Below, one piece after another: positions 6,001 through 9,000 of a stretch of 64,000 nt of DNA. Each line of letters opens with the position of its first letter. Position 1 is the first letter of the stretch. Source of the stretch: a virus (lineage: Duplodnaviria > Heunggongvirae > Uroviricota > Caudoviricetes). Made by a program: the position numbers. Location of the stretch: IMG/VR virus record IMGVR_UViG_646311923_000012. One strand, written 5' to 3'.

Positions 6001-9000
6001 TATCAGAATTGTGATGTTTGGTATTGTGCGCCATCGGTTTTCTCTGCTGGCGCAGCAGGTGCCAGTTGTTCAAGCTGGCGTGCGGCAATATTGTCTCTGA
6101 TTTCTGTTGTCGTCAACAGGCAACGTGCTATCATCGAATGGTGTTCTATCCTACTCCGTGAGGTTTACCATGCGTACAACCCAACAATTCAGCATTACAT
6201 TAACTAACGAAATGGCTGACATGGTGCGCGCCCGTGTGGCTTCCGGTGCCTATGCTTCAGAAAGCGAGGTCATTCGTGAAGGGCTTCGCGCACTGAATGA
6301 GCGCGATAAAGCAATCGAAGCGTGGTTAACGCATTCAGCCGCCCCCTCTCTTGATTCTATCCGCGAAAATCCAAACAACGGACGCTCCATTTCACAGGTT
6401 CGCGCCGCGATTCGATCCGGGAAGTAATCTGCATGACATATGAAGTCATCATTACTCCTGAGGCCGAACAACAAATAATCAACCTGCACAGGTATATAAC
6501 GGAGAAAGCAGGGAACGTCATTGCTGACAATTATGCCAATGCGCTTCTTGATTATCTTGATGGGTTTTCTACATTCCCGCATCGGGGCAATAAACGCGAT
6601 GATATTCGCCAGGGGATGCGGGTAACTCATTTCCGCCACAGAACGATTATTGCTTTTGCCGTTGATAGCAGAAAAGTCTTTATTGTCGGTATCTATCATG
6701 GTGGGCAAAGTTATGAAACCGATTTCTTATAAACTTTTACCCACATCATTCCGGTGTTAGAATTAACCGTCCGCCCCCTCTCTTACTGGCGGATTCGTAG
6801 GCTATATAAATCAAAGATCCCGGCTCATGTTTATGTCGGGATCTTTTTTCGGCGATTTATCCCCAGCGGCAAATCGAATACACCACCAGCGCCACCGCCA
6901 TCGCAATTCCTACCGTTGTGAATGCTTCAGGCCAGGTCATCGTAAAATATCCTCCACGCTTATCAGTCCGTTCCGCTCCAGATAACTCATCGCCTTATCC
7001 GGTAATTTGCAGTCTGGCTTCGCTTTCCTCAGTTGCCAGGTTAACTGCTTTACCAGCATGGTTAACTCATCGACCAGACGCTGATATCCCACTGGTTTGT
7101 ATTCATGCAATTTACCGGCTGGCTCTGCTGCCAGCGATACCAGTGCGATTTCCAGAACAGCAATATCCATCTTATATGTGCGGATGATGTCATGGTCGAT
7201 TGTGCCCGGTATGCACAGTCTCTGTGTTTCAATAGTCTCCTCTGCGTGAGCTATTAACTGCTCTCTGGTAAAAGTCGTCATGCCGTAGCCCCTTCTTGAT
7301 ATTTTTCAAACCAGAACACAACTGGGTCAGATTTCATTTCAACCAATCCCATACGAACCAGCGCTTTGCCTTTCCCGGACGCAAGGAATTCACGACGACC
7401 ATCACTGATAATTCGCCGATAATCTTCCAGACTACTGCAATGCTTGTGCAGATTGCATGGGTGGCATGCCGGAACCATGTTGGATATATCGTCACGTTCC
7501 TGGTGAAGCATATTTCCATCAAAACGAATGACCGGTTTTACATGGTCTGCATGCCACTTTTCGCCAAGTTCGCAGCCGCAATAAGCACAGCGACCGCCGA
7601 ACTTCATGCGCAGCTCTGCACGTTGTTTTTTCGTCAGTGCCATATCAGCTTTCCTTATACGGATTAATTTTATTGTGCAGTGTGCTGAACGACGCCCACA
7701 CCACGTCGTTATACAATTCAATAACTGGCTCAATTATTTTCACGATAAACCAGACCAGTAATAGCGGGGGTATCGGTATCATCAACACGATAAATATAAT
7801 GAGAAACAAAAATTCTGTCGCTCTACTTTTTCTCGGATATTCTTTTCTGAATAATGTAGTCATTTCTTACCGCCCTTTCAGGCGGCCTCCTGATGTTTTG
7901 AGGGTGCAGAAATCCCTCCGGTTAAGGATTAAATTTTTAACTAAATTTAATTATTCAGGCGCGATAAGCTGTTCCGCACAATCCAGCAATGCTTCTGTCG
8001 CTTCCTTAAGCGTTACTGTATCGCTATCATCCAGTCCTGCAACTTTTTCGTACCTGACAAACGCCGCGCAAAGCTCGTTAAACAACCCCGCCCGTACTTC
8101 AGCCAGGAAAGCGTCGGTGGCCGGAGTTTCAGGAATCCGTCTCCTCATCCGTTCTATTGCATGATTGAACCCGAAATCTTCAGCAAGAGATACGTCATCC
8201 ATATTGTCATTGTCGTCCTCAATATCCCGTGGTTCTGGAATTGCAGACTTTATTACCGCATTCTCCGCCGCCAGCGCCACAAGATTAGCTTTCAGCTCTG
8301 CAATTCGTTTGTTTTGGGCTTCCCGTTCATCCAGTAGTGCCAGCGCAACATTTGGATTAAAAGCAGCAATAAATTCAGCGTTTGCATAAGCCTGAACATC
8401 TGTTTCAACCAGGCAGTTAACATGACATTCTGCAATTACGCCACCGGGCTCTCCTTTCCATTTTTGACAAACAAAAACTCCTGTTATATTCCCATGCTGA
8501 TTGCCCGATGTATGCCCTACGATGTAGCATCCTTTAGTTGCTTTCTCTGCTGCTTCACGCAGCGCCTGATAGTCAATCTCGCTCATTCATCGCCCCACTC
8601 ATCACAATATGCTTCGACCGGATTTTTTCCTGCTTCATAATCATCACGCCATGCTTCAGCATCAGCAGCACTGCCACCACGTAACTCTGCATATTCCATT
8701 AACAGTTCATGCCATTCTTCAAAACTGACGCTGTATTTAGTTGAACCAAAATCAGCCATTTTGTTCTTCCTCTTCGTCTTTTATTTCGTGATATGAATAA
8801 TTGCAGTAGTTAAAGAAAATATCTTTTGCTTCGTCATGTATTTCATCAGGCGTCGCATCATCATCCACTTCGAATTCATCCTCGAAATCTCCACCGGCTA
8901 TTCCCGTTTCAATAATTATTTTAAACTTTCGCATTTAACTACCGCCCTTTCGGGCGGCCTCCTGACATTAATCGTTGTGGTAACTCATGGCTTCATTTGC

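Follow-up and report, generated by a model that had tools for sequence, protein, structure and literature searches.

Chains of small genes interlinked by ATGA stop/start overlaps characterize the nin region of phage lambda, and small early-operon proteins such as lambda CIII and Kil act on targets associated with the host membrane. Type I toxins (Hok/Gef, TisB, DinQ, ShoB) are short hydrophobic peptides carried on mobile elements and held under tight translational repression. Small bacterial inner-membrane proteins such as AcrZ, KdpF, CydX and MgtS are at most 50 amino acids (aa) long, comprise a single helix, and usually work by packing this helix against a larger membrane protein (review PMC12648545). 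Here we describe an open reading frame (ORF) of 27 codons found twice in a 64,000-nucleotide (nt) stretch, hereafter the window, of the Caudoviricetes record IMGVR_UViG_646311923_000012. We estimate at about 80% the probability that this ORF is a coding gene for a 27-residue single-pass inner-membrane micro-protein, belonging to a widespread but uncurated phage family and presumably acting via helix packing. The predicted product resembles AcrZ, KdpF, CydX and MgtS in size, single hydrophobic helix, charge-defined topology, a history of being missed by annotation, and likely helix-helix packing. However, it has no sequence relationship to these proteins (the KdpF model TIGR02115 gives 14.7 bits against a cut-off of 26.85), and is instead carried by phages in multiple copies, with predicted translational coupling to variable Ea22-like genes. 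With lambdoid early operons (nin/exo-xis/b-region) the locus shares the 4-nt ATGA overlap, a Shine-Dalgarno sequence inside the upstream coding sequence, and a location in the group of small accessory early genes that separates the replication genes from DUF968/RusA/Q, whereas the peptide is far shorter than the products of the named nin and ea genes and is a predicted membrane helix. The novelty is thus the peptide family itself, uncurated and absent from the papers searched, while both the small-membrane-protein kind and the lambdoid arrangement of interlinked genes are known.

The two copies, their predicted translation signals and their upstream partner genes lie at the following positions.

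6857..6940 (-): copy A of the 27-codon ORF; ATG start, TAA stop, 27 aa
56323..56406 (-): copy B of the ORF; matches copy A at 84/84 nt
6937..6940 (-): ATGA in which the copy A start overlaps the upstream stop; ATG at 6940-6938, upstream TGA at 6939-6937
56403..56406 (-): ATGA in which the copy B start overlaps the upstream stop; ATG at 56406-56404, upstream TGA at 56405-56403
6951..6955 (-): Shine-Dalgarno sequence GGAGG of copy A, 10 nt before the ATG, within the upstream gene's last codons
56414..56418 (-): Shine-Dalgarno sequence GGAGG of copy B, 7 nt before the ATG, within DUF551 gene codons ...QEVNQ
6937..7281 (-): upstream partner gene of copy A; 114 aa, phrog_660, no Pfam match; Ea22-like mosaic family ending ...ISVEDILR
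56403..56960 (-): upstream partner gene of copy B; 185 aa, C-terminal DUF551 domain (Pfam PF04448, E = 5e-20); Ea22-variant type

A family hidden Markov model run on the six-frame translation of the window recovered copy A with 70.6 bits (E = 9e-21), and the chance expectation for a second exact 84-nt match in the window is 0. Pairwise alignment and a repeat finder both delimited an identical block of 85 nt (6856-6940 = 56322-56406, 100%), which begins at the ATG, stops one base past the stop codon and has unrelated flanks on both sides. The approximately 90 nt of flanking identity proposed in the initial annotation of this locus therefore reduces to the ORF plus one base. The same annotation was right that an ORF of the same length follows two different upstream genes, that its ATG overlaps the same-strand upstream stop in both copies, and that it is retained where its neighbors have diverged, the ORF being 100% identical between the two prophages against 81% for DUF4014 and 86% for DUF968. 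The two upstream proteins have only a 25-residue stretch in common. For the gene upstream of copy B, the DUF551 assignment also comes from PHROGs and from the PGAP name, and DUF551 has been placed in the V2 variant of Ea22 (PMC10834534).

To describe the ORF outside the window, viral contigs were searched with a degenerate DNA pattern for WPEAFxxVG, which yielded 126 true loci. In 92 of these, start and upstream stop overlap as (A/G/C)TGA, and another 28 have the stop directly abutting the ATG (TGATG or ATGATGA, often with an extra in-frame ATG), for a total of ~120/126 loci with overlap or abutment. GGAGG is found 7-10 nt before the ATG in nearly all loci. Because the ORF retains its length behind 19 unrelated upstream protein clusters, and is followed by 41 clusters of downstream neighbors, it represents a conserved unit at a mosaic junction. 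Its hosts are lambdoid (Shiga toxin, Stx, -type) prophages, P1-like phage-plasmids and some virulent phages, in which it sits within chains of overlapping early genes, and distant family members likewise show 4-nt overlaps in gene chains, near excisionase/integrase genes or between replication-type genes. This comparison of gene order places the ORF at the 3' end of accessory genes of the variable Ea22-like/DUF551 kind, in early operons. The same pattern also matches many Bacteroidota genomes (loci L126-L245, among the matches listed) via a segment reading ...STWPEAFQVVGC... in a short stop-bounded frame. We interpret these as an out-of-frame read of a conserved gene, i.e., as false positives unrelated to the phage peptide.

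A mosaic junction could also be explained by the 85-nt block serving as a module-boundary or recombination linker between phage cassettes, in which case the open frame would be incidental and without functional product. Such a linker would fit the 100% nucleotide identity of copies whose flanks are unrelated and whose neighboring homologous genes are only 81-86% identical, the presence of the same nucleotide variant behind several upstream gene types, and the frameshifted copies found next to an intact upstream gene. Yet the mosaic boundaries fall exactly at the ATG and the stop, and a linker needs no Shine-Dalgarno sequence at fixed spacing. In addition, divergent copies change mostly at synonymous sites, and members with unrelated nucleotides (guanine-cytosine (GC) content 0.57-0.71) keep the motif, the start and the short length, so that we consider a linker very improbable.

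The ATGA junction similarly invites the suggestion that the peptide is a C-terminal membrane anchor of the Ea22-like/DUF551 protein, added via -1 frameshifting, with the free 27-mer as a by-product. Relative to the upstream stop, the ORF invariably occupies the -1 frame, and rare in-frame fusions with an Ea22-like or other upstream protein do exist in databases (P0097, P0102, P0041, P0026), but these are singletons on 1-4 contigs. No slippery heptamer is present at either junction, the ORF's own ATG and well-spaced GGAGG are conserved, and in both copies the frame and the upstream stop separate the peptide from the upstream protein, of which it is not part. An anchor formed by frameshifting is hence hardly credible. 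One further candidate fusion, P0012 (GGESMTWPEAF..., "DUF551, partial"), was rejected as a DUF551 fusion, since it merely results from translating the ORF's own frame further upstream, across the Shine-Dalgarno sequence, at a contig edge.

Selection was evaluated on 49 distinct 84-nt versions of the ORF. The pooled ratio of non-synonymous to synonymous polymorphism (pN/pS) is 0.35 in the ORF frame, compared to 0.9-1.6 in the other sense frames, and 0.41 on codons 12-27, which are free of the search pattern. On a minimum spanning tree, these free codons show 61 synonymous vs. 52 non-synonymous single-base events, a synonymous excess (neutral synonymous fraction 0.26; p = 1e-10) corresponding to an omega of ~0.29, and the dN/dS comparison across homologues suggested when the ORF was first annotated thus indicates purifying selection. 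Length variants remain in frame, through 6-nt Ala-Met or Ala-Val expansions, and the mean BLOSUM62 score of replacements is +0.29 in the sense frame, whereas the antisense frames score -0.5 to -1.2. The sequences show the sense frame to be under purifying selection, and the two coding signals considered, a start with a Shine-Dalgarno sequence and purifying selection, are both found. A structured-RNA explanation was ruled out: no RNA family overlaps the ORF in an Rfam search of the window, with nothing matching at copy A, and the RNA fold of the ORF region is not unusual (z = +0.42).

Several observations count against a coding gene and need to be weighed here. First, the search pattern fixes WPEAFxxVG at the amino-acid level (seven residues), an ascertainment caveat for which selection was recomputed on the remaining codons, as given above. 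Second, the antisense frame that shares wobble positions with the ORF has a pN/pS of 0.38-0.39 and is open in 48/49 variants. Third, the peptide is absent from the searched text supplements of enterohaemorrhagic Escherichia coli (EHEC) ribosome-profiling and Enterobacteriaceae microproteome papers. Finally, ~5-10% of copies are frameshifted, truncated or without a stop.

Since antisense mirrors the sense pN/pS, the sense assignment rests on the conservation of start, Shine-Dalgarno sequence and stop, together with the quality of replacements. In the window, open antisense frames run across both copies, at 6754-6921 (+) with 55 aa and at 56157-56387 (+) with 76 aa, and have a common C-terminal ...IPSGKSNTPPAPPPSQFLPL. 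With their starts in non-homologous flanks, they look like a by-product of hydrophobic sense coding. Were the selected element instead one of these antisense ORFs (6754..6921 +, 56157..56387 +) or an antisense RNA, the wobble-sharing frame would be accounted for, and one + strand promoter-like site exists at 6736-6763. However, the same pN/pS symmetry is expected for any selected sense frame, replacements in the wobble-sharing frame are non-conservative (mean BLOSUM62 -0.52), and the antisense ORFs start at unrelated positions, with no conserved start. Antisense frames also acquire stops in distant family members, the count of promoter-like sites is below the shuffled expectation, and neither an Rfam match nor a stable structure was detected over the ORF. 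Of all the explanations considered, a selected element on the opposite strand appears the least probable.

Decayed copies were cataloged both in the viral set, where L084 has a 1-nt deletion, L123 a frameshift, L088 a premature stop and L054 an ATA start, while L098 and L120 have each lost the stop, and in a sample of 30 evenly spaced E. coli matches, which includes two frameshifts (L277, L278) and one 5' truncation (L279). The initial annotation had stated that frameshifts or stops in homologous regions would argue against a real gene. Such lesions do occur, but in a minority of ~5-10%, and most copies are intact. This proportion matches the expectation for prophage genes and does not overturn the selection signal. 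In L277 (JNEC-KY175) and L278 (AR_451), a 1-nt indel frameshifts the tiny ORF, with the 114-aa gene upstream and hokD downstream both annotated as intact, i.e., decay is limited to the small ORF. In phage VT2-Sakai, the peptide is split into two tblastn pieces over 79 nt in one record (AP000422.1, 60187-60265, H42), but forms a single intact 78-nt match in another record of the same phage (NC_000902.1). This split could reflect a 1-nt sequencing difference or a frameshift.

For the micro-protein we favor, sequence features across the family point to a single membrane-spanning helix. Residues 7-24 of the 27-aa window peptide are hydrophobic, which places it, by prediction, within the definition of small single-pass membrane proteins (≤50 aa, one spanning hydrophobic helix), and only 42 of ~2,260 positions are charged across the family in the 17 residues that follow the WPEAF cap. 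In 133 sequences, the seven N-terminal residues include 4 Lys or Arg vs. 132 Asp or Glu, while the eight residues after the helix include 181 vs. 61, and this acidic N flank and basic C flank lead to a predicted N-out/C-in topology. G11, A13, A15 and A17 are near-invariant and define two small-xxx-small faces (G11/A15 and A13/A17). An AlphaFold2 model of a 57-aa member, built with the family alignment, consists of a single helix from Trp3 with a predicted local distance difference test (pLDDT) score of 90, and of 93-98 over the first 30 residues. The start, the Shine-Dalgarno sequence, the conserved length, the synonymous excess and the distant homologues all favor the original proposal of a real small membrane protein, on sequence-based grounds.

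A short hydrophobic peptide on a mobile element, with copy B adjoining hok/sok, is also what would be expected of a membrane-damaging type I-like toxin, or of a host-kill/abortive-infection peptide, oligomerizing via its small-xxx-small faces to depolarize the inner membrane. Its size and hydrophobicity fall in the range of the small type I toxins TisB, DinQ and ShoB, the Gly/Ala pattern is glycine-zipper-like with weak sub-threshold matches to a glycine-zipper Pfam model, and the ORF adjoins toxin-antitoxin modules in both copies as well as in 933W and ArgO145. Nevertheless, type I toxins are tightly repressed at the translational level, whereas this peptide has a strong Shine-Dalgarno sequence and appears coupled to an ordinary gene. 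No Hok/Gef (PF01848) match was obtained for the peptide, for the 51 diverse members or for the 61 members scanned individually, and the sole PF01848-annotated protein, P0085, is a Hok toxin with a weak match to the query (E = 1.4). No antisense RNA family overlaps the peptide, and promoter-like sites are not above chance. The Rfam sok match at 56107-56281 (-) corresponds to the adjacent hok gene, 42 nt beyond the copy B stop, and the overlapping antisense RNA and mok leader of Hok systems were not found for the peptide itself. Up to 7 copies are present per genome, which also speaks against a toxin, and the highly variable downstream neighbors suggest that adjacency to toxin-antitoxin modules reflects a common insertion slot. 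On this balance, we view a toxin as distinctly unlikely.

Beyond the window, the micro-protein family appears widespread yet rarely recorded. Within E. coli, the 84-nt ORF occurs in 1630/5426 complete genomes (~30%), at 3103 places in total, with up to 7 per genome and 163 on plasmids, three sampled examples of which are ~100 kb each. A HMMER search with a small profile against 1.84e9 (1.84 billion) representatives retrieved 93 clusters at E<1e-3. Among these, the ~60 newly found clusters that were read are short proteins all carrying the motif, and a few others are long multi-stretch proteins (e.g., P0087, P0092, P0094) that probably represent composition matches. The resulting signature is M-[TSN]-W-P-E-A-F-x-x-V-G-[IV]-A-x-A-[VI]-A-[LF]-x-x-[YW]-[SA]-x-x-[RK]-[WY]-G, with Trp as residue 3 in 81/133 motif-bearing proteins. 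A scan of the complete viral collection with a high-GC codon motif identified additional members, 29-56 aa long, in contigs whose GC content is 60-71%, and distant homologues with unrelated nucleotide sequence (GC 0.57-0.71) keep the N-terminal motif, the start, the short length and the hydrophobic helix. Ala-Met/Ala-Val hexanucleotide expansions in other E. coli genomes (P0044, P0053-P0059) yield variants of 29, 31, 33 and 35 aa, so that these repeat expansions constitute natural variation in helix length.

This family is present among phages but lies outside the curated libraries Pfam, NCBIfam and PHROGs. The 51 diverse members had no Pfam or PHROG family match, the best library scores being below cut-off (phrog_4612, E = 0.019; DUF7512, E = 0.007) and neither of them common to the 51 members, and weak Pfam matches to T4SS_pilin, DUF883_C and PTR2 were treated as hydrophobic-composition noise. 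The window peptide had no match in NCBIfam or PADLOC, and thus no support for a defence-system explanation. No homologue was found in the K-12 prophages Rac, Qin and CPS-53, the last of which has the DUF551 gene yfdS. The ORF is unannotated in RefSeq/PGAP and in the GenBank records of 933W, VT1-Sakai, ArgO145 and the virulent phage TH18, where it begins at the upstream stop. The exact 27-aa product has been called in a few GenBank submissions ("hypothetical protein FORC28_2400", "bacteriophage protein"), variants of 40-41 aa with an extended start have WP_ accessions as hypothetical proteins, and a search with a duplicated query returned mostly variants of ≥29 aa without functional names. The 84-nt ORF is below the 90-nt minimum of Prodigal, and the predominance of variants of ≥29 aa in protein collections fits the earlier suggestion that it is too short for ORF callers. 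Finally, the motif is absent from the literature searched, and the exo-xis/ea22 papers mention no downstream small ORF.

Both copies lie in equivalent positions of two collinear lambdoid prophage segments, ~49.3 kb apart, whose gene order was read from the RefSeq annotation of identical DNA in other E. coli strains. In both prophages, replication genes are followed by DUF1627, several small genes, DUF4014, the upstream partner (HNH plus the 114-aa gene in prophage A, the DUF551 gene in prophage B) and the tiny ORF, and then by a variable insert, a 273-nt hypothetical gene, DUF968, RusA and DUF1133. One or two genes upstream, DUF4014 encodes a second small hydrophobic protein of 72 aa, whose two copies (7645-7863 (-) and 56962-57180 (-)) have 81% DNA identity. 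The presence of this small hydrophobic protein nearby suggests that the early accessory block encodes more than one small membrane protein.

The variable insert directly after the tiny ORF contains ParD/ParE on the opposite strand (6107-6732 +) in one prophage, and mok/hok/sok plus a YdeI-like gene (55493-56281 -) in the other, while in 933W and VT1-Sakai the ORF adjoins hok or xis-int. With 41 neighbor clusters across phages, this slot behaves as an insertion hot spot for accessory genes ("morons"). A terminator-like hairpin follows copy A, and such hairpins are found 3' of the tiny ORF in 17/63 distinct downstream contexts elsewhere. This hairpin and the RNA features from an Rfam/ARAGORN scan of the window are listed below.

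6806..6845 (-): terminator-like hairpin (GAUCCCG.../...CGGGAUC) with U-rich tail, 11 nt past the copy A stop; -21.8 kcal/mol, z = -2.2
16226-16277 (+): DicF small RNA
1294-1466 and 50618-50790 (-): STnc100, two copies
2236-2487 and 51560-51812 (-): prophage transfer RNA clusters (Arg-Arg-Met and Arg-Met)
63603-63719 (-): ALIL frameshift pseudoknot of an IS3-type element

Elsewhere in the window, a tandem direct repeat at 22066-22542 comprises at least 3 copies with a period of 141 nt and 95-96% identity.

Taken together, these features suggest how the micro-protein might be made and act. Translation would proceed by termination-reinitiation from the upstream gene plus direct Shine-Dalgarno-dependent initiation, and the peptide would then insert as a single N-out/C-in helix, predicted to start at Trp3, with its N-terminal cap acidic and the residues that follow it basic. 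Packing against a second helix, that of another copy of the peptide or of a larger inner-membrane protein, may be mediated by the invariant WPEAF cap together with the small-xxx-small faces. A larger partner protein might then be modulated during early phage development, as is seen for other bacterial small membrane proteins.

A more specific proposal is that the WPEAF micro-protein is a phage effector working with the Ea22-like genes to which it appears to be coupled. In this scenario, it would bind a specific host inner-membrane protein (e.g., a protease, a transporter or a component of DNA entry), thereby influencing lysis-lysogeny, prophage induction (including that of Stx phages) or superinfection exclusion. 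Like lambda CIII and Kil, it would be a small early-operon product linked to genes biasing lysis-lysogeny, in this case Ea22, which has been reported as pro-lysogenic (PMC7093339, PMC10834534), but it has no sequence similarity to CIII or Kil and is a predicted integral membrane helix. We offer this as a tentative proposal, one that is on the whole unlikely.

About 30% of complete E. coli genomes thus carry a gene omitted by standard annotation, of which Shiga-toxin-producing strains have up to seven copies, and the family marks a gap in Pfam, NCBIfam and PHROGs. It also provides a test case for small-ORF annotation, in which the signature M-x-WPEAF-xx-VG plus helix could become a family model. 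The gene is located in poorly understood accessory early regions, beside Ea22-type genes reported to affect Stx phage lysogeny, and, as a defined, conserved and easily mutated 27-codon gene, represents a new candidate for phage-host membrane interactions. If true, a partnership with Ea22 directed at a host membrane target would raise the value of this finding.

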